DNA of 64,000 nucleotides. Source: a virus. Below are positions 17,018 through 63,548 of this stretch, piece by piece. The stretch is taken from IMG/VR virus record IMGVR_UViG_3300036944_000561, positions 64,525-128,524 of that record. One strand, 5' to 3'. The stretch's first letter is position 1, and each line of letters opens with the position of its first letter. Made by a program: the position numbers and the translations under genes. The notes below the pieces were generated by a model. That model made no database searches and was not told the origin of the DNA. It saw only the letters and a program-made list of their open reading frames with translations.

Positions 17018-18454
17018 TTAGATGAATTTGATCTCTGGTTCTGTCATGATGGATGTCAATGTGCTGAGAATATGAAGATATGGATCTGGCGTACCGGCAT
17101 GCCATTTCTGTTCTTCACCCAAAGTCGTTACCAGGTACGGTATTGAAGATTGTGTTACCCGAGCCGGGATTGTTTCTCTGATATTGACCGGGGGATATAG
17201 ATACCGGAAAAATCGTCCATAGAAATCTGGCCCAATAGTTTCAACATTGTCCATCACCCATTGTGAAAGATCTTTGAAGTTGTGTTCTTTCATGATCTTC
17301 AACAAATGGTCATATTGATCTCCTCCAAGAATTGAAATAATTCCTAGATCGATTTTTCCATTCTGTTGAGCATATGATTGTAGAGCACCCAATATAGACC
17401 GATTGTCTGGGTAATAATTTTGAACTACACCGAGAACAGCCTTCTTATCGAAGGGAACCCCTTCTTGAGTCAAGATTTCACAACATCTGAGACACATTTG
17501 AACCTTAAGAGAATCGGTGGTCTTTTTGTCCCAGATAAAATCTACCCGGCGACAACGGCTTACCAACGGCTTGACAATCTTTTGAATGCTGTTTGAGGTA
17601 AGAATGAATGAGCAATTTTTGCTCACACTTTCCATAATTCCCTTTAATGATTCCTGCGCGGCAACAGAAAGCCTTTCACAATTGTGGGTTACGATACCAT
17701 CTTCTGTCAAGAACGTATGGTTTTTGTTCACTGTTAGGTTCACCACACGTCTAACACCAACAAATTTAATAGATGTGATAAAATCCATCACGCGATTGTT
17801 AGATTCACCTCTAACAACCACCATATCGTACACAGAAAGTCCGGTTGAAATAGTTCTAGAAATAAAATCTTCATCTTCAAGTAAAATCATCGGATGATTT
17901 TCTGTTAAAAGAACGATTTTTCCAGAACGCAATTTGACTTCGAACACTTCAACTTCACGATCTTTGATAACTTCAGCGGTATCTTCCTCAAATTCGCCAG
18001 TTTCCATATTGAAAGAAGGAAGCGATAGTGTTTCACCAATATTCAAATCACCAATTCGAATAGAAACTTCATTCCCATTCTCGTCATAGGCAAGAATCTT
18101 TGTGTTTTCTTCCAAACATTCGTCAAGAATCACCACTTTCTGTTTAGCATTTCCAATAACTGAAACAGTGGTTGAATATTGAAGAACTTTGGTACGAATG
18201 TTGTCAATAGACGTGTCTAGTGAAGCATTGATGAACAATGGGGTACTACAACCGATTGCCGATGATAGAGCGCGAGCAGTGGTGGTTTTGCCTGTACCGG
18301 GTGTTGGGCTATACAATAAGAATGATGGAATACGACCTTCTGCTGCAAAGTTCAAGAATAAATCTTTTAATTCTTTTGGAAGAATGATATCTTCAATGTT
18401 GGTTGGACGATATTTCTGTTCCCAGATAAACTCATTTGGATTCGTTACTGACAT
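17018..18454 (-). CDS. gp44: Clamp loader AAA+ subunit gp44 containing an intein
   Basis: WEQKYRP, GTGKTT, NAS, VILDE and LVSRC motifs. Confidence 0.95.
   Translation of the reverse strand: MSVTNPNEFIWEQKYRPTNIEDIILPKELKDLFLNFAAEGRIPSFLLYSPTPGTGKTTTARALSSAIGCSTPLFINASLDTSIDNIRTKVLQYSTTVSVIGNAKQKVVILDECLEENTKILAYDENGNEVSIRIGDLNIGETLSLPSFNMETGEFEEDTAEVIKDREVEVFEVKLRSGKIVLLTENHPMILLEDEDFISRTISTGLSVYDMVVVRGESNNRVMDFITSIKFVGVRRVVNLTVNKNHTFLTEDGIVTHNCERLSVAAQESLKGIMESVSKNCSFILTSNSIQKIVKPLVSRCRRVDFIWDKKTTDSLKVQMCLRCCEILTQEGVPFDKKAVLGVVQNYYPDNRSILGALQSYAQQNGKIDLGIISILGGDQYDHLLKIMKEHNFKDLSQWVMDNVETIGPDFYGRFFRYLYPPVNIRETIPARVTQSSIPYLVTTLGEEQKWHAGTPDPYLHILSTLTSIMTEPEIKFI
17681..18118 (-). mobile_element. 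146-aa mini-intein (no endonuclease) inserted right after the Walker B DE
   Basis: Starts CLEENTKI; block B LTENHP; ends NLTV..NHTFLTEDGIVTHN followed by Cys+1. Confidence 0.95.
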
Positions 18455-18540: not shown

Positions 18541-19254
18541 TTAGTCTTCGATTTCACCACCAATTACATACAGAATCTTGTCATCCATGGTGCTGAATTT
18601 TGCATACTTCTGCTCAGAACTTGCTTCAATCTTATAATCACCGGGCATCATAAGCAAATAACTGGTTTTGAGCATGATGTATGCGTCTGGCTTGTCGGTT
18701 TCACCCAATTCAAGAACAAAGTCATTACTGGTGTCGACTCCTTTGGTTGTACCGACAAGGTACACTTTGCCTCCATCGTTCATCAGCTTGCAATATTCGT
18801 GACCCAGCAGTTTACATGCCCGATCGAAGCTATTGAATTGTTCTTCACTGATACATGCAACGATATCTCCGGGATCAAATTCCAAATCACCTTCTGGCAA
18901 TTCGACTAATGATTCGGCCGCTGCCCAGAAATTCATCTTGGTCTTTTTACCGTACAATGTAATCTTCTTTTCATCCATCTGAAGAATACAATCTTCATCT
19001 TTGAACTGCGGAAGTTTCAGAATACCCAAAAAGCTACTCAGGTCAGAAATTGGAAATGAAAATGGAATCTTTTCTTCAATTTCAGCAATCGCCAAAACAG
19101 ATGAATTCGCATTGGCTGTTCGTATCTGTTGTTTGAATCCAGTTTCTAAAGATGTATCTTCTACGGCTGCTTCTAATTTCATAGAAGGATTGATCTTTGA
19201 AAAGTTTGCAAGAATTGCGGTGGTACGGTTAGACAACGTCAATTTTTCTGACAT
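18541..19254 (-). CDS. gp45: Sliding clamp gp45
   Basis: LSNRTTAILANFSKINPS, FPISDLSSFLG and MMPGDYKI; precedes gp44. Confidence 0.92.
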   Translation of the reverse strand: MSEKLTLSNRTTAILANFSKINPSMKLEAAVEDTSLETGFKQQIRTANANSSVLAIAEIEEKIPFSFPISDLSSFLGILKLPQFKDEDCILQMDEKKITLYGKKTKMNFWAAAESLVELPEGDLEFDPGDIVACISEEQFNSFDRACKLLGHEYCKLMNDGGKVYLVGTTKGVDTSNDFVLELGETDKPDAYIMLKTSYLLMMPGDYKIEASSEQKYAKFSTMDDKILYVIGGEIED

Positions 19255-22677: not shown

Positions 22678-23811
22678 TCAAAGATGTTCAGGAATGGCTC
22701 CCAATTCAGGACAATTACATCGCATGGCATCGATTGAAGGTTTTGAACCTATGATCCAAAATAGAGATTCTTCATTGATAAGTTCTGGAATATTCTGTTT
22801 GAGATATTCCAACACTTTTCCTTCATATCTTGGATGCAGTTCTATTCCATCAAATTGGTTCGGGATGAGGTCACTATACTTCACCCAATTCGTGGTGTGT
22901 AGATCATAGTGGAACAATTTGAATTTGGGGTCTGTCACGATAGGAGAAGAACTCCCCCACAATTTCTTGGTTCCTATTTCAACATCTCCTGATAATTCAG
23001 GATTGTCTCTGTAGTGTTTTTCGAAATTCATAAGATCTTTGAATTTTTCTGGGTCTGTACTTTTGATCAATTCCAAACGATCTTGCATCCATTTGATACG
23101 GTTTGGACCGATACCGATCAGATGAACTTCTTCAATTTGTGGTTGAGGATACAATGCAAGGCCAGTTAAGATTGACATACAACTGTTACAACTCCCAGCA
23201 GGGATAATCAATCTCTTGACAGATTTGGGAATGTTTTGAACTTGTGGTGCTCCTACTTCATGGAAGGCTCTGATTCTACTTGCAGTGTTGGTTGGGATCT
23301 TTTGGTCAGTAGTTATACCATATTCTAGATAAAACGGACGAGAGGAGCTCTCAGCCACTAGAGACTTACATTTAGGTTGGATTGTAGAGTTGTACCCAGA
23401 ACCAACATATTCGAATGATGAACCAAACCACGCGCTCATCGCTACCATGTCGTGTTTGATGGCAGTAGCAGGTTTGGTAGCCCCCAGGACAGTAGTTGTA
23501 TGACCACCGAAATGACGAGAGACTGCTGTAGCCATAGGAGACTGAGGAGAACCCACTACAGTACCGTGAACGATATCTGGCGAACCACCTGAAGCAATAT
23601 GCTCTTTGAGCAACCAGATGGCAACACGAAGCTTGTCCCCGTTGATACCACCATATCCGAGGGGAGCAAAATAGTCACCCCGCTTGAACCACATTTTGGA
23701 AGTTCCTTCGGTTTTCAATTCTACCGGAGTGAGAATCGACAGATAATCTTCCCAATGAAGTTGAGATCTATCTAACGTCAGTTTATCAAATATTGTGTTG
23801 TTCATTGTCAA
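22678..23811 (-). CDS. PLP-dependent enzyme of thymidine hypermodification (ViI gp226-like decarboxylase)
   Basis: LTPVE, WFKRGDYFAPLGYGGINGDKLR, SPQ, PAGSCNS and FWIIGS fold-type-II motifs. Confidence 0.85.
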   Translation of the reverse strand: MTMNNTIFDKLTLDRSQLHWEDYLSILTPVELKTEGTSKMWFKRGDYFAPLGYGGINGDKLRVAIWLLKEHIASGGSPDIVHGTVVGSPQSPMATAVSRHFGGHTTTVLGATKPATAIKHDMVAMSAWFGSSFEYVGSGYNSTIQPKCKSLVAESSSRPFYLEYGITTDQKIPTNTASRIRAFHEVGAPQVQNIPKSVKRLIIPAGSCNSCMSILTGLALYPQPQIEEVHLIGIGPNRIKWMQDRLELIKSTDPEKFKDLMNFEKHYRDNPELSGDVEIGTKKLWGSSSPIVTDPKFKLFHYDLHTTNWVKYSDLIPNQFDGIELHPRYEGKVLEYLKQNIPELINEESLFWIIGSKPSIDAMRCNCPELGAIPEHL

Positions 23812-47209: not shown

Positions 47210-47878
47210 TTATTTCTTAAATAAACGTCTTAGAGAGGAATCTTTCTTTTTGGGGTGTTTAAGTTCTTCTAATCTCTTTTTCTCTTTGGCCTTTTCAGCC
47301 GATTTGATCGCTTTCTCCTTTCTCCTTTCTTCGTATGATGCAGCTCTTGAGATAAAATCCTGAGCCATATCAGAAGTGAGATTGGTATCCTTCATGACAT
47401 CTTCATCTTCTGAAAACGCAGCGAATCCACCCATATTTGAAAATGAAGCATTTTTGAAATATTCTTCTTGTTTTTCTAAGTTGATTGTGTTCCCGAATGT
47501 TCTATCAATAGTTGTAGTTGCCCAAGAATAGAAATTCACCCGCCCGGATCTTTCCCCGATTTTATCTGGATCAAAACAATGAACATATCTAACAAGATTC
47601 ATAATTGCATCACAAACCATATCTTCACGATAATGATAGTTTCTGAAATTGTAGCGGTATGAAAGATTTTCACAAATTCTCTTAATATGGTAGCCGAGAA
47701 TTTCTGGGACTGGAGCATCTTGAGGACGACCTTCTTTGATAGCATCTATTCGTTTTTGACGCCATTTCCTGATAGTTTCAATGCAGACTTGGTTGTCTTC
47801 TTCTGTGAAATATATGTTAGCTGATTCTCCTTTATCAACATATCGCATTCCCATTATCGAATCCTCATTGTGCTTCAA
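47210..47878 (-). CDS. gp55: Late-transcription sigma factor gp55
   Basis: ICENLSYRYNFRNY.YREDMV.DA, FDP and FYSWAT; syntenic with gp47. Confidence 0.9.
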   Translation of the reverse strand: MKHNEDSIMGMRYVDKGESANIYFTEEDNQVCIETIRKWRQKRIDAIKEGRPQDAPVPEILGYHIKRICENLSYRYNFRNYHYREDMVCDAIMNLVRYVHCFDPDKIGERSGRVNFYSWATTTIDRTFGNTINLEKQEEYFKNASFSNMGGFAAFSEDEDVMKDTNLTSDMAQDFISRAASYEERRKEKAIKSAEKAKEKKRLEELKHPKKKDSSLRRLFKK

Positions 47879-52895: not shown

Positions 52896-55793
52896 ATGAC
52901 TGAAAGTAATAAACCTTTCCCGACTGGAATATACAGATCTGGGAATGATCTAGTTTTTCGCCTTTGCACTCAGGACGGAAAACGCAAAAAGTTCAAACAT
53001 AGATTCCAACCATGTCTCTTTCTTCCAGCGCCTCCGGATACTCCTGTAGAAGTTGCTGAACATTTTGCATTGCGCGGTGAACCAGATCCTCGTAACAAAA
53101 CCCCATTGGTCAAGCGCCAATTTGATAACATGTACGAGATGAAGCAATATCTTGATGAGAATTTCGATGTTCCTGGTGTCCGACTCTATGGTTCAAAGAG
53201 CCCAGTCATTCAGGCATATAGTGACTTCTTCCCTGAAGATATCAAACCGAATTTCAAACACATTCGTTGTATGAACCTCGATATAGAAGTGGTGTCTTCG
53301 TTTGAAAAGGATGGAATGATCGGGTTTGGACCTTTCCCTGAGCCAATTATCGAAGAGGAACAATACAGAAGCAACAGTTTCAACATCGACATTTATAGTG
53401 ACCACGTGACAGAATTCTATAAGTGGTGGAATGTTGAGTTTCCCAATTCTGTTATTCCTATTTGGACTAACATGAACGCTGCTTTCCCTATTGTTTCTCT
53501 ACAGCTTTCAGATAAGAACCTTAACAAACAAATCATTTGGGGTCTGCCGCTTAGACGTAACCGAAACAAATTCGTTTACAATCCGAAAGATGAAGAAATT
53601 TCTGGTCTTGATGTTGAATACCGTGAATTTTCAACTGAGCAGGATATGCTCAAAGATTTCATCAAATATTGGGCATCAAGAGACCCAGATTTATGGACAG
53701 GTTGGAACATATCACAGTTTGACGCACCATATCTTGCTGAGCGCGTGATAAAGATCCTTGGATCTGATTGGGTGAATTCACTTAGTACCATTGGTCGAGC
53801 TTATAAGAAGCTCGAGAAGCCTAAGAAGGGACTTCCGTACAACACTTGGGTGTTTGATGGTGTACCCGCTATGCCATATGATGATTTGTATCGCCGACAC
53901 CGCTTGGTAGAACGTGCTCGATATTCGTTGGATTTCATATCACATATCGAACTTGACGAACAGAAATTGAGTTATGCTCATGTGAAGAGTTTGAACACAT
54001 TGTGGTTCGTTGAATATGAAAACTTTATTCGATATGGTATCAAAGATATCAATCTGGTTGACAAATTAGACGCAAAACTCGGTTATCTGAATCTGACATA
54101 TATGCTAGCGGCCTTGTACAAGTGTAACTATTCAGAAACATTGTCTACTGTTACACCATGGTCATCTTTGTTGTATAGCTTCAATGCTAAGAAGAATAGA
54201 TATCCGTTGCTCAAGAGACACCAGACATTTACTGACAGCTTTCCGGGGGCATTTGTCCATGATCCTTTACCGGGCAGATATCTATGGTTGTTATCAGAGG
54301 ATCTGAATTCACTGTACCCGCACATTTTCCAACAATACAATCTGGGTCCAGAAACGATTGTTACTGAATCAGAACGTCGTGACATCATATATGAAATGAT
54401 TCAAGAAGTGGATGCTTTCAAGACTACAGATTTTCAACAGAATCGTGCAAAGACTGCGTTGCTGGATGCTTTACGAAACGAACGTGAAATCATCAACGAA
54501 TTGGTAGATTTTGGATTGTTTGAATTTCAATGCTTGAAAGATCATGGTGTATCCATGACTCCAAATCTTCAATTCTTTATCAACGACGAAATAAGCTGTT
54601 ACAGCGTGATCATGCGAGAGAAATACGCTACTCGTAAAACTTTCAAAAAATCTATGCTCAAACATGAACAAATCATGGTTGATTTGAAAACTTCTGGAAA
54701 GAAAAATTCACAAGAATATCATGATGCCGATTATCAGCATTCTAATGATGACACATCACAACATGGTGTGAAAATTTTATTGAATGCGGGATATGGTGCG
54801 GTCGGTACAGAATGGTTGACGGAATATTTTGATCCTAGGATTGCTCGAGCAACTACCGCTTCTGGCGAATTCATCAACAAGTGGATCACCAAGCAAGTGA
54901 CTGGGTATCTTCGAGATCTAACCAATGAGCCTAATCATAGATTTGTTGTATATGGTGACACTGACAGTTGTTATATTACACTGGAAAAACTTGCTAAATT
55001 GCGTGGTTGGGATAAATTAGAACGAAAAGAAGCCATATCCGAAGTCGACAAGTTTGAAAAAGAAGAACTGAAACCATTCATTGAAGAAAATTGTAAGCGA
55101 CTCGCTGATAGTGTCAACGCATTTGAACAACGTATGTTTTGGGGGCGTGAAGTCATATCCATTCACGGAGGAATTTTTCAAGCCAAAAAGCGTTATTGTT
55201 TGTTGGTAGATGACTCAGAAGGGGTTCATTATGAAACCCCGAAATTGAAAGTCACCGGGTTGGAAAGTAAGAAATCAACTACCCCGGAAATTTGTGTTGA
55301 CTGGTTTGAGACATGTTACAAATTAGCAATTTTGAACAAACAAGAAGAAATATATGAAAAGGTAAAGGAATATCGGGATATTTGGAATTCTCAATCACCT
55401 GCTGATATTGCAACTGCTTCAAGTTGCAGCAACATCACTAAGTTCATGAGCAATGGAGAATGGGTGCCAATCAAGAATACACCCTATCAGGCTTCCTCAG
55501 CAATGCTACACAATCGTTTGATCAGTGAGCGAGGGGGTAGAACACCCTTGATAGGAGACGGCTCTAAACTCCTTTTGGTCGTCCTGAAGAAAAACAATCC
55601 ATACAATGCCAATTACATTGCATTTCAGAATTTCTTCCCAGAAGAATTGGAAGATGTCAAGGCTTGGATTGATTATGAAGGGTTGTTTGAAAAGAACTTT
55701 CTAACCCCCTTGGATCTATTGTTAGGCGCGGTTAAAATGGATCACAAGAAAAAAGTCAACGTATTCAGTTTCATAAAGAAAAAGGCAGAATAA
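52896..55793 (+). CDS. gp43: Family B DNA polymerase gp43
   Basis: DIEV, GWNISQFD, DLNSLYP, KILLNAGYG and YGDTDS. Confidence 0.97.
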   Translation: MTESNKPFPTGIYRSGNDLVFRLCTQDGKRKKFKHRFQPCLFLPAPPDTPVEVAEHFALRGEPDPRNKTPLVKRQFDNMYEMKQYLDENFDVPGVRLYGSKSPVIQAYSDFFPEDIKPNFKHIRCMNLDIEVVSSFEKDGMIGFGPFPEPIIEEEQYRSNSFNIDIYSDHVTEFYKWWNVEFPNSVIPIWTNMNAAFPIVSLQLSDKNLNKQIIWGLPLRRNRNKFVYNPKDEEISGLDVEYREFSTEQDMLKDFIKYWASRDPDLWTGWNISQFDAPYLAERVIKILGSDWVNSLSTIGRAYKKLEKPKKGLPYNTWVFDGVPAMPYDDLYRRHRLVERARYSLDFISHIELDEQKLSYAHVKSLNTLWFVEYENFIRYGIKDINLVDKLDAKLGYLNLTYMLAALYKCNYSETLSTVTPWSSLLYSFNAKKNRYPLLKRHQTFTDSFPGAFVHDPLPGRYLWLLSEDLNSLYPHIFQQYNLGPETIVTESERRDIIYEMIQEVDAFKTTDFQQNRAKTALLDALRNEREIINELVDFGLFEFQCLKDHGVSMTPNLQFFINDEISCYSVIMREKYATRKTFKKSMLKHEQIMVDLKTSGKKNSQEYHDADYQHSNDDTSQHGVKILLNAGYGAVGTEWLTEYFDPRIARATTASGEFINKWITKQVTGYLRDLTNEPNHRFVVYGDTDSCYITLEKLAKLRGWDKLERKEAISEVDKFEKEELKPFIEENCKRLADSVNAFEQRMFWGREVISIHGGIFQAKKRYCLLVDDSEGVHYETPKLKVTGLESKKSTTPEICVDWFETCYKLAILNKQEEIYEKVKEYRDIWNSQSPADIATASSCSNITKFMSNGEWVPIKNTPYQASSAMLHNRLISERGGRTPLIGDGSKLLLVVLKKNNPYNANYIAFQNFFPEELEDVKAWIDYEGLFEKNFLTPLDLLLGAVKMDHKKKVNVFSFIKKKAE

Positions 55794-55794
55794 T

Positions 55795-56457
55795 ATGTAT
55801 CATACTGGAAGTGTTATCACTCGTGAGAAATTGTTCATTGTTGCATTTGATTGTGACCTCACATTATTAGAAACTCTAACACCGTGGCTGAACTTCTTTG
55901 GATTGTCTTTGGATGAAGTTCCTAGGGCAGAGCCAGGGGTAGTTTCGGACCTTAGTCCATGGATTCGTAAAAATCGTCGGAAGAATTTCGAAATTGAACC
56001 TACAGACTGGTGGAAAATGCCGGGAGTGTACAAGAATGCTCAGCCATTACCAGGCGTATTTCATTTCATTCAAGATCTTCAAGAGATGTTAGAGAAAGAG
56101 ACATCAAAAGAAGTTCGATTTGTAGTGGTGAGTTCATGTCATCCAGAGCACATCAATGAAAAATGGATGCGGATAGAAGAATTGTTTCCTATGATGTTTG
56201 ATGCAAAGATTCCTACTTCTTCAAAACATTATGTCGATTTCGATTTATTGTTTGATGATTCGTTGGGGGTTCTTCAGAATTGTGTGGACTCTGGAAAGCA
56301 TATTGTTGTTCATGAAACTGGACTGAGCAAAATTAATCCACAAATAGAAAATTGGTCATACATATACAACCCAACTAGATATCCTAAAACTTTTGAATAT
56401 TCCACCAGTATAATAAACGAATTGCGGTCAAAACTGAAAATTCTTGGGTGGATTTAG
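55795..56457 (+). CDS. HAD-family 5'(3')-deoxyribonucleotidase
   Basis: FDCDLTL, AQPLPG, K..VDFDLLFDD. Confidence 0.8.
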   Translation: MYHTGSVITREKLFIVAFDCDLTLLETLTPWLNFFGLSLDEVPRAEPGVVSDLSPWIRKNRRKNFEIEPTDWWKMPGVYKNAQPLPGVFHFIQDLQEMLEKETSKEVRFVVVSSCHPEHINEKWMRIEELFPMMFDAKIPTSSKHYVDFDLLFDDSLGVLQNCVDSGKHIVVHETGLSKINPQIENWSYIYNPTRYPKTFEYSTSIINELRSKLKILGWI

Positions 56458-57195
56458 ATGAAAACATTCAACATGCATATTCTCAAAGGGGCTTCAGGCA
56501 CTGGGAAAGGAACAAGAGTCAGTCAATTGATAGAATGGTTGAAGACTCAGGAAACCCCCATTGTGTGGACTCCTCAGAAAAAGCCGTTCGGATTACTTTT
56601 CCCCAAGCATGGGTTTATGTTCATCGGTTGTTATACAGAATCTAACAAGTCTGGGCTAACCTCCTGGTCTTCTATGGATATGGTTCACGCTACTGTGAAA
56701 ACAGCTGATGCTGGTCGTGAGATTCTTCGTAGAGCAAAAGAATATGCTATAGAAAATTCTTCATTTGATACGGTTTCCCTTGTCGTAGAAGGAGAACCAA
56801 TGTTTTTGTCTGACAAGTACAGACCAAAATTTATATCGGAATTCTACGAACCAGATAATTTGTACATGTCATATTTTGTTTATGCCTCAAGGGAACAATA
56901 TGACCAAAGAATCAGATGTCGTTCTGGTATAGATAAGGGTGGAGACAGTGGTTGGTCAAGAGCTGATGGATACCCGAAAGAATTTGAAAAATCAAAGCAA
57001 GAAGCGGTACTCTTAGACAAGCCTTCTTGCTTTATAACCATGCATCAATTCGATGAAGAAGTTTCTTTGTGGGGTTCAATTGCTCTCAATCGACAAGGTT
57101 TTGATCCCAAGGAATTTGAAATTTGGTCTGAGAAGAATAAAATGTTAAGATCTATAGGAACAGACCCCTTAAACAAATCAAGGAAACTTTGGTAA
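56458..57195 (+). CDS. P-loop kinase of the 5hmdU modification cluster
   Basis: ILKGASGTGKGT, IGCY and VVEG; ends RKLW. Confidence 0.78.
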   Translation: MKTFNMHILKGASGTGKGTRVSQLIEWLKTQETPIVWTPQKKPFGLLFPKHGFMFIGCYTESNKSGLTSWSSMDMVHATVKTADAGREILRRAKEYAIENSSFDTVSLVVEGEPMFLSDKYRPKFISEFYEPDNLYMSYFVYASREQYDQRIRCRSGIDKGGDSGWSRADGYPKEFEKSKQEAVLLDKPSCFITMHQFDEEVSLWGSIALNRQGFDPKEFEIWSEKNKMLRSIGTDPLNKSRKLW

Positions 57196-58364
57196 TGTTG
57201 AAAAAAGAAGGTTTTGTTAGACCGAGCCAGTGGCAATTTCCAATTGATACCAGTGTTGATTATCGATTACCAGAAAATCGGTTGTATATGGTGATGGCTT
57301 GGGCGGAAGCAATGTATCATACCGGGGAACTGAATCAGCAACTCCGATTAATGGACTGGGCTATTGATCATGATTCATTTCCCGGCTACGATAAAATGGA
57401 ATCAAAATTGTGGCTCGCCTTCTTGTGGGGGTGTTGTTACAATCTAACTGGACCATGGGTAATATTGAATGCATTCCCTGTCCCTCCAAAACTTGAAGAA
57501 ATTGACACAAAATTTTCAGAATGGTATAATCACAATTTCGACAATCTTCGTTTCGATACAGATTGTCGTTATAGAAAAGCAAACATGATCGCGTGTGTCA
57601 AGAGCTATGTTAAATGGTTGAATGGTCGCAGTCAGCAAACAAAAGTGTTAAAAGAACTAGAAGAATCATTTTCTTCTCCGCAAACTGCTTATCACCGAAT
57701 GTGGAGCCATGCGACAAATTGGGATTTCTATGGTCGTCTAAGTTCTTGGAACTATCTAGAAGCTGTTGCTCTGGTTACCGGGTGGAATTACCCATTCGAT
57801 TGTCAATCGTTCCTTCTAACGGACGTGACTGGGTCAGAAAGCAACCGAAACGGTGTTGCTTTCATGATTGATAGAGAAGATCTATTGACCAAGCATGGTA
57901 AATTGAAATCAACCGGGGTAGCAATTTCTCAGTCAGATTGTGAAATGCTCGAGATAGAAGGCGAAAAGATTTTCGGGTACATCAAGAAGAATTTGAATCA
58001 CATCGATCCAGTCTTGCGATTCAATGTAGAAACTATAATGTGCTGGACGAAGAAACGCTTCAGAGACTACAACACCCGTTATTTAGGGTGGGATTCTGAA
58101 AGAACATATGATGAAATAGAATATACCAGAAAAAATTGGTGTTATATTCCTGTTAAAATTTTATATGAAGCTAGGAAGGCATGGCTTCCCGAATATATTC
58201 GTTGTGAAGATGCCCCTGTAGGAGTTGTTCAGGGGGTAGATAAACGAAAAATGCCCGTGTTTTTTGAAACAGGAACTCCTTGGGATATTATTCATTTCCA
58301 AAGAGGTGAACGATGGGTTGTAGAGAAAGAAAAATTAAAATCTAACAGCAAGAGGCTTTGGTAA
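57195..58364 (+). CDS. Amino acid:DNA transferase (aGPT-PPlase clade 2 family)
   Basis: DYRLPENR, WLAFLWG.CY, RFDTD, FYGRLSSWNYLE and SNRNG; ATG overlaps the upstream TAA. Confidence 0.85.
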   Translation: MLKKEGFVRPSQWQFPIDTSVDYRLPENRLYMVMAWAEAMYHTGELNQQLRLMDWAIDHDSFPGYDKMESKLWLAFLWGCCYNLTGPWVILNAFPVPPKLEEIDTKFSEWYNHNFDNLRFDTDCRYRKANMIACVKSYVKWLNGRSQQTKVLKELEESFSSPQTAYHRMWSHATNWDFYGRLSSWNYLEAVALVTGWNYPFDCQSFLLTDVTGSESNRNGVAFMIDREDLLTKHGKLKSTGVAISQSDCEMLEIEGEKIFGYIKKNLNHIDPVLRFNVETIMCWTKKRFRDYNTRYLGWDSERTYDEIEYTRKNWCYIPVKILYEARKAWLPEYIRCEDAPVGVVQGVDKRKMPVFFETGTPWDIIHFQRGERWVVEKEKLKSNSKRLW

Positions 58365-59530
58365 TGAAGGATAAATTTTTTGATGTTCCGTATTGCGGAG
58401 TGCGGGAAGACAAGATCAAATCAGCAAATCCAGTTGTTGATGAAAAGATCAAAGGATACCTCAAGGAATTTATTGTAGACCGATACAATGTTCATTTGAA
58501 AAAAGATGTTCAAAAGCTTCCTGCTCCCTGGACAGATAATCCCATTTTTCAACAAGTGAAATTCACTAATGTTAGGCGGGAACACGATAGACAGTCCAGA
58601 TTCTACATCGAGCACATTGCTGAAGCCAATTGTGACTGGAATACCAAGTTCTGGAATACCGTGATGTTTCGAATGTTCAATCTATCCACAATTTGGGAAC
58701 ATTTGTCCGGTGGTGATGTCATTAGTTTGATAGACCTAGAATCGAAAGACTATCAGGACATGTTCCGAGCTGACCTCAAACAGTTGGAAAAGGAAGGACA
58801 TAAACTCTTCACGAATGCTTTCAACACCGGGGGACTCAAACAATCATTGGATCTTCCTGAATTTGATGTGGATACTTGCCGAGAGCAACGGAGAGGTGAG
58901 ATAATTCTTAAAGATGTGAACGGTAACGATGTCAATTATAAACTTGAGAGGGAACGCCTCTTGAGTGGAGAGATTGTATGTGAAGACTTTGAGCCATACA
59001 TGCCGATGAGAATCATTCGATATATTGCCAGGGCTTCAAAATATTTGTTTCCCGAAATGTCCGATGATATTTTGATTGTTAACTCTCAAGAAGATGCTTA
59101 TCAGATTTTGATGTGTATTCGTGGGTTCAGTCGCTTCTTGGCCTATCAAGTATTTGTTGACCTGACATACTGTGAAGAATTTCCATTCTCAGAAAATCAT
59201 TTCACTGTCAGTGGACCCGGTTGTGATGCTGGACTGAATTTATTGTTCAAGGATCGAGATGGTATGACATACGAAGAGTGTTTGTTCTGGTTGGTTGAGA
59301 ACCAGGATGAATTCTTCGGTATTGATTTCAAAAAACTTTTCAGTGATCTTCCAGAATATGATCGTCGGGCGAATGTGATGATGCTAGAGGACAACGCATG
59401 CGAATTGCAAAAATATGTGCGCTGCAAGGAAGCCATTGCCCAGGGGAAGAAACCCAGAGGAAAAGTGAGTGCTGACAAACTAATGATCCCTCCAAGATCT
59501 ATAACGAAAACAACCAAAAAACTTTGGTAA
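58364..59530 (+). CDS. aGPT-PPlase clade 1 / 5hmdU-DNA-kinase helical-domain family protein
   Basis: PWTDNPIFQQVKFTNVRREHDR, GFSRFLAYQVFVDLTY and GPG...GL. Confidence 0.88.
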   Translation: MKDKFFDVPYCGVREDKIKSANPVVDEKIKGYLKEFIVDRYNVHLKKDVQKLPAPWTDNPIFQQVKFTNVRREHDRQSRFYIEHIAEANCDWNTKFWNTVMFRMFNLSTIWEHLSGGDVISLIDLESKDYQDMFRADLKQLEKEGHKLFTNAFNTGGLKQSLDLPEFDVDTCREQRRGEIILKDVNGNDVNYKLERERLLSGEIVCEDFEPYMPMRIIRYIARASKYLFPEMSDDILIVNSQEDAYQILMCIRGFSRFLAYQVFVDLTYCEEFPFSENHFTVSGPGCDAGLNLLFKDRDGMTYEECLFWLVENQDEFFGIDFKKLFSDLPEYDRRANVMMLEDNACELQKYVRCKEAIAQGKKPRGKVSADKLMIPPRSITKTTKKLW

Positions 59531-59536
59531 ATTTAG

Positions 59537-59580
59537 CCATTCTGTGAATTACCTAAATACTTCTGTAATTCACAGAATGG
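59537..59580 (+). promoter_or_regulatory. 16-bp hairpin covering the HNH SD, with a CTAAATA late promoter in the loop
   Basis: CCATTCTGTGAATTAC / GTAATTCACAGAATGG; loop CTAAATACTTCT. Confidence 0.88.
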
Positions 59581-59590
59581 ATTTAATGAA

Positions 59591-60517
59591 ATGTTTGATT
59601 GGAAAACTGAGTTGAAACTTTTGGGTGTGGACGACAGATTAATACACAGATACGAAATGTTGTTGATTATAGGAGAGAAACAATCCAAAGGAGTTTGTTA
59701 TTCAGAAGTACACCATATTCTTCCTAAATGTATGTTTCCGCAATTCGCAAAAACTAAAGAAAATTTGGTTAAGATAAGTGGAAGAAGTCATTATCTTTGT
59801 CACATTTGCCTTAGCACTATGTTTCCTGACGAATTTGGTATTGTTATTGCATCTGTATTGATGAAATCTGGAGGAAGGTATAATGTTGACGGTATCAGAT
59901 ATAATTCTAAATTGTTCGAGAATCATAGGCTGAGGGCAGCACAAATGATTTCAGATAGAACAAAAGGGGTTTCTAAATCTGTTGGGGAACAAAACCCAAT
60001 GTTTGGGCGATTTGGAGAATCCCACGGTGCATTCGGCCATAAGAAATCAGAAGAATTCAAGACTATGATTTCAGAAGTTATGAAGAAAAGAATGAGTTCT
60101 AAAGAATATAGAAAGATCCTCTCCAACAAATTAAAAGAATATTTTTCAATACCAGAACACAGAAAAAGAGCATCAGCTCAAAAATTGGGTGAACTGAATC
60201 CAAATTATGGAAAGGATATAACAAATTCGTTTTCTGAAGAAACGAGAAAGAAACAATTTGAAAATCAGAAGAAAGTATTAAATGCCATGATGCCTTGGGA
60301 AAAGCCCAGATGGAAAGATGATAAGGATATGTATTGGTGTAAAGCAGTGGAATTTAAGATTTTGCTGGATAATAACACAAAAATGTCGGAAATATTGTTG
60401 GAATTATGGGGAGATAAGAGTATAGCGGTCTGGAATGCTGTAAGTTCTATGAAAGAAAGGATAAAGAATGGATGGGATCCAAACACTTGTGAAAAATGGA
60501 AATCTAGATATAAATAA
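59591..60517 (+). CDS. HNH homing endonuclease with NUMOD3-like repeats
   Basis: EVHHILPKC...ENLV...RSHYLCH; GEQNPMFG, KKSEE.K..IS and GELNPNYGK. Confidence 0.88.
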   Translation: MFDWKTELKLLGVDDRLIHRYEMLLIIGEKQSKGVCYSEVHHILPKCMFPQFAKTKENLVKISGRSHYLCHICLSTMFPDEFGIVIASVLMKSGGRYNVDGIRYNSKLFENHRLRAAQMISDRTKGVSKSVGEQNPMFGRFGESHGAFGHKKSEEFKTMISEVMKKRMSSKEYRKILSNKLKEYFSIPEHRKRASAQKLGELNPNYGKDITNSFSEETRKKQFENQKKVLNAMMPWEKPRWKDDKDMYWCKAVEFKILLDNNTKMSEILLELWGDKSIAVWNAVSSMKERIKNGWDPNTCEKWKSRYK

Positions 60518-62858: not shown

Positions 62859-63548
62859 ATGCATTTGATTAAGGAACGACTTCATAATAGTTTATTCAAG
62901 AAAATATCCCGGCCAGATATTTCAACGTTGAAGAAATTATCGCGCCCGGTAATTTTTGAAATTCGCGGAACTAATGGCTCTGGTAAATCAACTGTCCCTT
63001 TCAAGCTTCAATCATTAGATCCGGATGCTTTCATTCTTAAAGGTAAATCGGAACTGGGTCAAATCAAGATTACTGTATTGCCGTCATTCCGCACGTTAGT
63101 TGCTGGAGATTATCCAACAGGTAAAGCCGTTGGCGGATGTGACCGTATTAGTGGCTCAGAGCTCATAGAAGCAACGATCGTAGCAGCAGCTGGCTATCAG
63201 GAGGCGTTCCCTTCTTTATTTGATAGAATCCTTTTTGAAGGCATTATGACCTCTACCTCTAACACCCGTTATATCAGAACATTGAAAACTCAGTTGGAAG
63301 ATAGGTTCGATTATGTTGTGGCCTGGTGTAACACTCCTCTCGAAATTTGTATAAAGCGGGTAGCAAATCGAAGTTCTGGGGTGTTCAATGAAAAATTGGT
63401 CGAAGGTAAATTTTCACAAACCCAGAATCAGATAAAACCATTCAAAGAAGCATTCCCAGATGTGGTTGCTGTCGAATACGATTGTATGTGTTCTGTAGAC
63501 CAAATGGTTCAGAATTGGCTTGAGTTCGATTATAAAGAAATTGGTTAG
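62859..63548 (+). CDS. Second P-loop kinase, 5hmdU DNA kinase-like
   Basis: EIRGTNGSGKST, VGGCDRI, ILFEG and TPLEIC..RV..R. Confidence 0.85.
   Translation: MHLIKERLHNSLFKKISRPDISTLKKLSRPVIFEIRGTNGSGKSTVPFKLQSLDPDAFILKGKSELGQIKITVLPSFRTLVAGDYPTGKAVGGCDRISGSELIEATIVAAAGYQEAFPSLFDRILFEGIMTSTSNTRYIRTLKTQLEDRFDYVVAWCNTPLEICIKRVANRSSGVFNEKLVEGKFSQTQNQIKPFKEAFPDVVAVEYDCMCSVDQMVQNWLEFDYKEIG

Follow-up and report, generated by a model that had tools for sequence, protein, structure and literature searches.

Genes at the locus

Three consecutive genes in the window (the whole 64,000-nucleotide stretch of viral DNA analysed here) encode a 5-hmdU DNA kinase, an amino-acid:DNA transferase (ADDT) and a clade-1 protein, and each product ends in a peptide of the form [KR][KR]LW. 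A fourth copy lies inside a PLP enzyme encoded on the opposite strand (Table 1). Pfam assigns the three tailed proteins to three different families, and an hhalign comparison of the ADDT with the clade-1 protein detected no homology, so an origin of the tail by detectable gene duplication is not supported. The pathway of phage ViI comprises the gp67/gp243 kinases, the gp247 serine:DNA transferase and the gp226 PLP decarboxylase (PMC8989533). The same families are encoded here (PF18747, PF18748, PF18724 and fold-type II PLP). Relative to Kuttervirus-like orthologues, the PLP enzyme is ~55–60% identical and the ADDT and clade-1 protein ~42–50%. The second 5-hmdU DNA kinase, HMUD1, is the exception in the pathway, being tail-less. 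The nucleotidase encoded upstream of the first kinase is, to judge from its weak NT5C-like match, likely a nucleotide-pool enzyme.

The window also encodes a sliding clamp, a DNA polymerase and a late sigma factor. The clamp is 36% identical to that of Det7 by tblastn and matches phrog_223 (E 8.5e-47) and, in the PDB, T4 gp45 (1CZD, E 2.4e-11) and RB69 1B77/1B8H. The own-genome search with the Pfam gp45 families gave no match to this protein, which we regard as a false negative, since the protein is recognised as the clamp by tblastn, PHROGs and the PDB alike. A homologue of the late-transcription factor gp33 is encoded beyond the window. No match to a 5′-3′ exonuclease/RNase H (Pfam PF02739) was found in the contig, which is ~85% complete.

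Table 1. Coordinates of the motif-bearing genes, the candidate receptor and neighbouring genes in the window
Feature	Positions	Strand	Assignment	C-terminal end or motif
gp45-type sliding clamp, proposed tail receptor	18541..19254	−	tblastn, PHROGs, PDB	
Fold-type II PLP enzyme	22678..23811	−	orthologue class of ViI gp226 decarboxylase	internal GTKKLWGSS
TKKLW of PLP enzyme	22957-22971	−	disordered inserted loop	Leu codon TTG
Late sigma factor gp55 homologue	47210..47854	−	phrog_234, E 7.4e-42	SSLRRLFKK
gp55 RRLFKK codons	47213-47230			same [KR][KR]L[FW] core
DNA polymerase gp43	52896..55793	+		KKVNVFSFIKKKAE
gp43 tail codons	55755-55790			
NT5C-like nucleotidase	55795..56457	+	weak match, 20.6 bits, under Pfam cut-off 24.8	no tail
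5-hmdU DNA kinase, 245 aa	56458..57195	+	PF18747 HMUD2	KSRKLW
Kinase RKLW codons	57181-57192			
ADDT, ViI gp247 class, 389 aa	57195..58364	+	PF18724	NSKRLW
ADDT KRLW codons	58350-58361			
Clade-1 aGPT-Pplase / HMUDK_hel protein, 388 aa	58364..59530	+	PF18723	TTKKLW
Clade-1 KKLW codons	59516-59527			
Second 5-hmdU DNA kinase	62859..63548	+	PF18748 HMUD1	no such tail

A rare peptide on disordered segments

Across the 128.5-kb genome [KR][KR]LW occurs four times, three times as an exact C-terminus and once in the PLP decarboxylase, inside a disordered loop. All four copies lie where a sequence-only reading had placed them, and the PLP copy does differ in its Leu codon, as noted there. In a crude proteome of 163 ORFs from this genome, the motif is restricted to the four hypermodification enzymes. 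Amino-acid composition predicts 0.0025 exact C-terminal occurrences, compared with the three observed (Poisson P ~3e-9). The motif is therefore a real observation, far from chance, and not a peptide found at background frequency across the proteome. When the pattern is relaxed to [KR][KR]L[FW] and may lie up to a few residues from the C-terminus, the only additional carriers are gp33 (TKKLF) and gp55 (RRLFKK). The earlier view that the gp43 and gp55 tails differ from those of the enzymes stands for gp43 but fails for gp55, whose end includes the relaxed core.

The AF2 model of the clade-1 protein has a mean pLDDT of 85.6, with C-terminal residues 368-388 below 50 and predicted to be disordered. 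Among clade-1 homologues, the linker that separates the conserved GKKPRGKV from the motif differs in both length and sequence. Residues 273-290 of the PLP enzyme, which form the motif-bearing loop, are likewise modelled at a pLDDT below 50. The fold of this enzyme matches 4d9e and 1j0a, and the loop is absent from its remote homologues.

Conservation at the protein level

Megablast with the region found no match in the phage collection, whereas tblastn detected relatives. Aeromonas phage TSW001 and an IMG/VR genome (G001), 56–64% identical, carry K[KR]LW on the kinase, ADDT and clade-1 protein alike, so that orthologues keep the motif at the protein level. Among the 29 kinase homologues listed, 15 have [KR][KR]L[WF] no more than 2 aa from the end and a further 8 end in xL[WF].

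The nucleotide sequence of the tails calls for separate consideration. The Leu-Trp-stop codons of the kinase, ADDT and clade-1 genes are identical (CTT TGG TAA), and the chance of finding the same CTTTGGTAA on all three is ~0.005, a hint that the nucleotide sequence itself has had some influence in this one genome. The kinase and ADDT genes overlap the next start as TAATG, preceded by AAGGA or AAGAGG. It could be argued, then, that translational coupling produced the tails as a side effect, with the Lys/Arg codons forming the Shine-Dalgarno sequence of the next gene and CTTTGGTAATG a conserved junction; the first two junctions (AAGGAAACTTTGGTAATG and AAGAGGCTTTGGTAATG) have this form, and CTTTGGTAA is common to all three tails. 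Downstream of the third gene, however, lie a hairpin and a 60-nt gap, and the PLP loop copy also co-varies with the tails, so the earlier judgement that coupling cannot explain the third tail or the internal copy holds. In TSW001 and G001, moreover, the peptide is retained with Leu codons CTG, TTG or CTT, stops that are mostly TGA, and 3-5-nt spacers in place of the overlaps, and in Kuttervirus-like phages the tails are common to unlinked genes. We rejected coupling as an artefact of negligible probability. The motif is under protein-level selection and is no by-product of coupling.

Co-variation of tails among lineages

The enzyme tails change together with the C-termini of gp43 and gp33 across at least five lineages. 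In the Kuttervirus-like lineage, gp43 ends in RVNLLSMMGKKG and the enzymes in SVNLMSLMKK, SINLLERMKK and SSNVLAMMLRK; gp55 of these phages has no obvious tail motif. In G009, gp43 ends in SVMDFFS and gp33 in SLTDLFGV, alongside enzyme ends SLNDFFG, SVLDLF and NVFDIFGA. The gp43 of the G013 group ends in EVDEWL, and D/E-E-W-L/F-type ends are found on the ADDT, clade-1 protein, PLP enzyme, kinase and T4-type RNase H. In the sister clade L218, gp43 ends in TSALW and two kinases, the ADDT and the clade-1 protein end in SSLW, NDLW, NALW and NSLW, the five tails using four different Leu codons. The PLP loop follows suit, carrying the lineage's own motif elsewhere (KSVSLLGLL, ADIANFFDGG); the G013 enzyme lacks the loop and has the motif close to its C-terminus. 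In an assignment test, the best match for 9 of 12 representative enzyme tails was to the gp43/gp33 tails from the same genome (chance 1/5, P ~6e-5). Because the lineages are related to one another, these co-variation counts are not fully independent.

A tail that served as a non-specific DNA-binding anchor, or as a stability or degradation signal, would need no docking partner. Lys/Arg plus Trp could touch DNA, and DNA is what all four carriers act on. Elsewhere among the lineages, however, the orthologous tails have an acidic or a purely hydrophobic make-up (DEWL, LDLF, NLLxxM) and equal the polymerase tail, a pattern that does not fit charge-based DNA binding and leaves this explanation very unlikely.

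Tails are missing in some relatives. In two small complete genomes (G018 and G019), where searches found neither a clamp nor gp43, the clade-1 and ADDT proteins end at the core domain, as they do in many contigs of ~50 kb or less. These genomes bear on which clamp could be involved. Short linear motifs tether DNA enzymes to a ring clamp behind the fork in bacteria (the beta-clamp motif QL[SD]LF) and in eukaryotes (PIP boxes, e.g. of DNMT1). The logic would be the same here, a linear motif tying DNA enzymes (there including a maintenance methylase) to the clamp, but the consensus and the clamp family are different, and the phage tails contain no QL[SD]LF match. Docking on the host beta clamp is suggested by some related tails (LSLFDF, SLFD) that look like the bacterial motif. 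KKLW, however, lacks its Gln and spacing, tails are seen only where a gp45-type clamp or gp43 polymerase is found, and they are missing from the complete clamp-less relatives, which would rely on the host clamp. We judged the host clamp an unlikely receptor, somewhat less credible still than a DNA-binding tail.

A candidate epitope for the phage clamp

In T4, the C-termini of gp43, gp33 and gp55 bind gp45; they are interchangeable, are borne on variable linkers and are functional when placed internally (PMC2988020). The peptides described here resemble the T4/RB69 gp45 epitopes (RB69 clamp-peptide structure 1B8H) in several respects. They are short hydrophobic/aromatic peptides at the extreme C-terminus or in an exposed segment, they follow a variable unstructured linker, and they occur on several otherwise unrelated proteins of one phage, which encodes a gp45 homologue as well as its own gp33 and gp55 with the same core. 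By extrapolation from T4, gp33 tails of the Ackermannviridae type would bind the clamp. Because four enzymes share their peptide with known clamp partners, DNA modification is probably hooked physically to the replication clamp. We consider it likely that [KR][KR]LW is the epitope by which proteins of this lineage bind a T4-type gp45 clamp, and that the tails hold the enzymes of hypermodification on newly replicated DNA; we infer both the binding of the tails to the clamp and an effect on modification. The sequence-only reading had proposed a common linear motif recruiting the pathway to one platform, and conservation, disordered carriers, proteome specificity and co-variation all support this proposal. 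It had put the sliding clamp first among the platforms, and the co-variation with gp43/gp33 tails appears to bear this out, narrowing the choice among clamp, polymerase and packaging motor to the clamp.

There are also differences from the T4/RB69 epitopes. The carriers here are DNA-hypermodification enzymes, and one copy is in an internal loop. The enzyme motif is basic, [KR][KR]L[WF], and not hydrophobic-acidic as in T4, acidic forms being found only in other lineages. Although polymerase and enzymes share a tail type in L218 and four other lineages, in this phage the enzyme tails resemble those of gp33 and gp55, unlike that of gp43 (VNVFSFIKKKAE). Two tail classes thus coexist in this phage, and the gp43 tail is the second, polymerase-type tail of the lineage.

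This mismatch leaves some room for a genuine docking motif with another receptor, such as a partner of the gp33 tail in this family, the clamp loader or a dedicated metabolon scaffold. Clamp binding of the tails is itself a prediction, and work on T4 allows for two different gp45 sites (PMC2988020). In four other lineages with distinct tail types, however, the orthologous enzymes have the polymerase's own tail, as does T4-type RNase H in one lineage, and gp45 is the only known partner common to gp43, gp33 and gp55 (PMC2988020). We therefore regard another receptor as improbable.

The kinase, ADDT and clade-1 protein present the peptide at the tip of a floppy C-terminal linker, and the PLP decarboxylase does so in a flexible loop at its surface. 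If the clamp is the receptor, clamps that were loaded as the DNA was replicated would remain on the new DNA, and the enzymes could dock at the site or sites used by the gp33, gp55 and gp43 tails. Docking would hold them on fresh 5-hmdU DNA, and we propose that phosphorylation, amino-acid transfer and decarboxylation would in this way be coupled in space and time to replication. A more elaborate scheme is speculative and, taken as a whole, rather doubtful: the trimeric clamp could be a three-socket assembly line for kinase, transferase and decarboxylase at once, the lineage could have switched its enzymes from a polymerase-type to a gp33-type KKL[W/F] tail, and the clade-1 protein could, with its own tail, act as an adaptor recruiting the tail-less HMUD1 kinase to the clamp. 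With such a switch, modification would share or compete for clamps with late transcription and not with the polymerase.

Relation to known systems and significance

T4 alpha-glucosyltransferase binds gp45 (Sommer et al. 2004, as cited in PMC13216743, where a pull-down confirmed it). It is, like the enzymes considered here, a post-replicative enzyme that modifies phage DNA bases and is tied to the phage clamp, a tie that is presumptive in our case. The T4 example is a single enzyme acting on hydroxymethylcytosine, for which the relevant passages name no shared terminal motif (PMC13216743), whereas here a whole multi-step thymidine pathway has one co-evolving peptide. The account of the ViI pathway (PMC8989533) does not mention a clamp, replisome or shared tail, and literature searches on clamp and hypermodification, aGPT-Pplase and 5-hmdU kinase found no paper reporting clamp-type tails on these enzymes.

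Thymidine hypermodification follows replication and does not go to completion; in ViI and M6 the modified share of thymidines reaches about half at most (PMC8989533). So far there is no explanation of how a series of three or four enzymes locates new DNA and keeps up with it. A shared clamp tether, if true, would be a concrete and testable mechanism for coupling modification to replication, and under it the enzymes should compete for clamp sites with the polymerase and late transcription factors. Unknown DNA-modifying enzymes in large phage genomes could also be sought with a sequence signature taken from the same phage's polymerase or gp33 tail. With a motif that moves between loop and C-terminus in PLP orthologues and changes in concert in all clients, these phages present a clear case from nature of a short linear motif co-evolving with its receptor.

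Motif-bearing enzymes and their tails

The source phage contig (IMG/VR, 128.5 kb, estimated to be ~85% complete) has Aeromonas phage TSW001 as its nearest isolate (~64% protein identity), with Ackermannviridae such as Det7 as more distant relatives. The genes of the kinase, amino-acid:DNA transferase (ADDT), and clade-1 protein are three neighbors in a row, and the sequence-only reading that all three end in a common motif was confirmed, as was the internal copy with its different Leu codon in the PLP enzyme. The AlphaFold model of the latter matches fold-type II PLP enzymes, among them 1j0a, which published work has taken as the template for ViI gp226 (PMC8989533).

Features discussed in the text (window positions unless stated)
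Feature	Position	Strand	Family or remark	Tail or motif
5-hmdU DNA kinase (HMUD2)	56458-57195		PF18747	KSRKLW
ADDT	57195-58364		PF18724	NSKRLW
Clade-1 aGPT-Pplase (now HMUDK_hel)	58364-59530		PF18723	TTKKLW
PLP enzyme	22678-23811	-	TKKLW at 22957-22971, Leu codon TTG	GTKKLWGSS (internal)
HMUD1 5-hmdU DNA kinase	62859-63548	+	PF18748	
gp45-family clamp	18541-19254	-		
Clamp-loader large subunit (gp44 homologue)	17018-18454	-	478 aa	
Late sigma factor gp55	47210-47854		phrog_234	SSLRRLFKK
gp33-type late-transcription co-activator	genome 31705-31932 (outside window)		75 aa; phrog_254, E 3e-14	TKKLF
74-aa protein	L005:16244-16468 (own-genome locus; genome 35244-35468, outside window)			KTRSIFNFVKR
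HNH/NUMOD3 homing endonuclease	59591-60517	+		
Hairpin	59537-59580	+	perfect 16-bp stem, 12-nt loop	
Sigma-70 consensus match	57502-57530	+	12/12	
T4-type RNase H of genome G013	L188:11200-12297		PF02739 + PF09293	TDEWL
Two tandem HMUD2-type kinase paralogues	L218:7246-8688			TNDLW, KSSLW

In a crude proteome of 163 ORFs from the whole contig, [KR][KR]LW is restricted to the four enzymes and is not a background pattern, with 3 exact C-terminal copies against 0.0025 expected from composition (P ~3e-9). The relaxed [KR][KR]L[FW] gives eight matches, two of them internal background and two more near a C terminus; the latter pair, gp33 and gp55, is informative.

All three window tails are encoded by CTT TGG TAA (chance probability of this identity ~0.005), and both gene junctions carry an SD-like sequence plus TAATG. 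The relatives TSW001 and G001 (an IMG/VR genome) retain K[KR]LW on each of the three enzymes. Their Leu codon is CTG, TTG, or CTT, the stop is mostly TGA, and the genes are set 3-5 nt apart in place of overlapping. A nucleotide-level constraint as the source of the tails is contradicted by these codons, stops, and junctions, and the earlier contention that translational coupling cannot explain them stands. The clade-1 gene precedes a hairpin or terminator-like sequence in both the window and TSW001, and the closest clade of database homologues ends in TKKLW, TKRLW, TKKLF, or TKRLF after linkers variable in length and sequence. Because the motif persists through all of these differences, the comparison indicates that the constraint acts on the peptide.

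Co-variation with gp43 and gp33 tails

Tails of the clamp, gp43, gp55, gp33, kinase, ADDT, clade-1 protein, and PLP enzyme were compared across 22 related records. Tail type differs between lineages and changes in concert within any one of them.

C-terminal tails by lineage
Lineage	gp43	gp33	gp55	Enzymes
A (window, TSW001, G001)	VNVFSFIKKKAE / VNVLKFFK	TKKLF / TARLF	RRLFKK / VLRFIK	[KR][KR]LW
B (Kuttervirus, Limestonevirus and others)	RVNLLSMMGKKG	KSKKLI / KSKKIL		SSNVLAMMLRK, SVNLMSLMKK, SINLLERMKK, NLLNLFKK
C (G009)	SVMDFFS	SLTDLFGV		NVFDIFGA, SLNDFFG, SVLDLF
D (G011, G014)	SVMDWFA			VNLFDI, SVNLFEGF
E (G013, G015, G016, G017)	EVDEWL			ITEEWL, TLDEWAD / SIDEWL; in G013 also EIDEWLKESE (PLP), LDEWF (HMUD2 kinase)

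No gp33 or gp55 homologue was found in the lineage E genomes, and Kuttervirus-like gp55 showed no clear tail in this comparison. The G013 RNase H shares the tail type of that genome's polymerase and four hypermodification enzymes. On the sister-clade contig L218 (185-kb metagenome contig, 51-55% identity), gp43 ends in TSALW, the two kinases in SSLW and NDLW, ADDT in NALW, and the clade-1 protein in NSLW, with four different Leu codons among the five; this contig gives a direct link between LW tails and the polymerase. Of 12 representative enzyme tails, 9 found their best match among the gp43/gp33 tails of the genome they came from (chance 1/5, P ~6e-5), a count that is inflated by genome relatedness and involves at least five distinct motif types. 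Misassigned lineage A tails had paired with gp33 tails from lineage B, which are likewise KKL-type.

The PLP loop carries the lineage's own motif: GTKKLWGSS or TNKLWGRK in A, KSVSLLGLL, NTNVMHLLF, or AKNLLDIMK in B, and ADIANFFDGG in C. The G013 enzyme is without the loop and has its motif near the C terminus instead; in most of the remote homologues the loop is short and bears no motif. Residues 273-290 of the window enzyme have pLDDT <50 in an otherwise confident AF2 model, and disorder is also seen in the clade-1 tail, at residues 368-388.

Clade-1 and ADDT proteins stop where the core domain ends in G018 and G019, small, complete relatives in which neither clamp nor gp43 was found, and also on many contigs of ~50 kb or less; distant ADDT homologues have neither linker nor tail. 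HMUD1 is an exception in the pathway, being without a docking tail in the window, G001, and G009. An NT5C-like protein in the window (weak Pfam match), likely a nucleotide-pool enzyme, is also tailless.

Probable receptor and proposed mechanism

The hydrophobic C termini of T4 gp43, gp33, and gp55 are clamp-binding epitopes that sit on divergent linkers, are freely swappable, and function when internal (PMC2988020). In lineages B, C, and E and on L218, the enzymes bear the tail of gp43; in D there is a broad resemblance to it, and in A the tail they bear is that of gp33. Because of these matches and the T4 analogy, the clamp, which the window encodes, would be the most parsimonious common receptor. 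The sequence-only reading had named the clamp, polymerase, or packaging motor; tail matches favor the first, whereas the presence of such a tail on the polymerase itself is left unexplained if the receptor is polymerase or terminase. T4 alpha-glucosyltransferase, likewise a post-replicative DNA modifier, is reported to bind gp45 (PMC13216743, confirming Sommer et al. 2004).

We infer that the enzymes dock to the clamp. As replication incorporates 5-hmdU, clamps remaining on daughter DNA would recruit the kinase, transferase, decarboxylase, and clade-1 protein via their tails, which could concentrate the pathway on new DNA. The underlying chemistry has been described for the ViI-type pathway in PMC8989533, a paper that nowhere mentions the clamp; targeted literature searches found nothing relevant. 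The window motif is basic and of gp33/gp55 rather than gp43 type, and the phage therefore has two classes of tail side by side. Particular to the window are this basic gp33-type KKL[W/F] variant, the co-varying internal PLP loop, and the LW-tailed sister-clade polymerase.

Additional observations

Near residue 31 the clamp contains 11 additional residues (AVEDTSLETGF), an insertion missing in all nine aligned relatives. The gp44 homologue (329 aa in Det7) aligns with its Det7 counterpart in two pieces, with ~100 extra residues between, a pattern suggestive of insertion of a domain or mobile element. The 74-aa protein, with its gp43/gp55-like tail, could be another clamp client; an unrelated 74-aa protein in G009 ends in NSLFDFFEV.

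Directly 3' of the clade-1 gene lies the homing-endonuclease gene, which shares 44% identity with the MobE-like gene 37 of Det7. In Det7 and phiD3 that gene, too, comes after the clade-1 gene, even though the clade-1 gene has a different genomic neighborhood there; in TSW001 the endonuclease is missing at this position. The hairpin (-22.5 kcal/mol, z -5.65), located between the stop codon of the clade-1 gene and the start of the endonuclease gene, has no T-run after it and is a candidate terminator, processing site, or homing site. The sigma-70 match (TTGACA, 17 nt, TATAAT, with TG upstream) lies inside the ADDT coding sequence.
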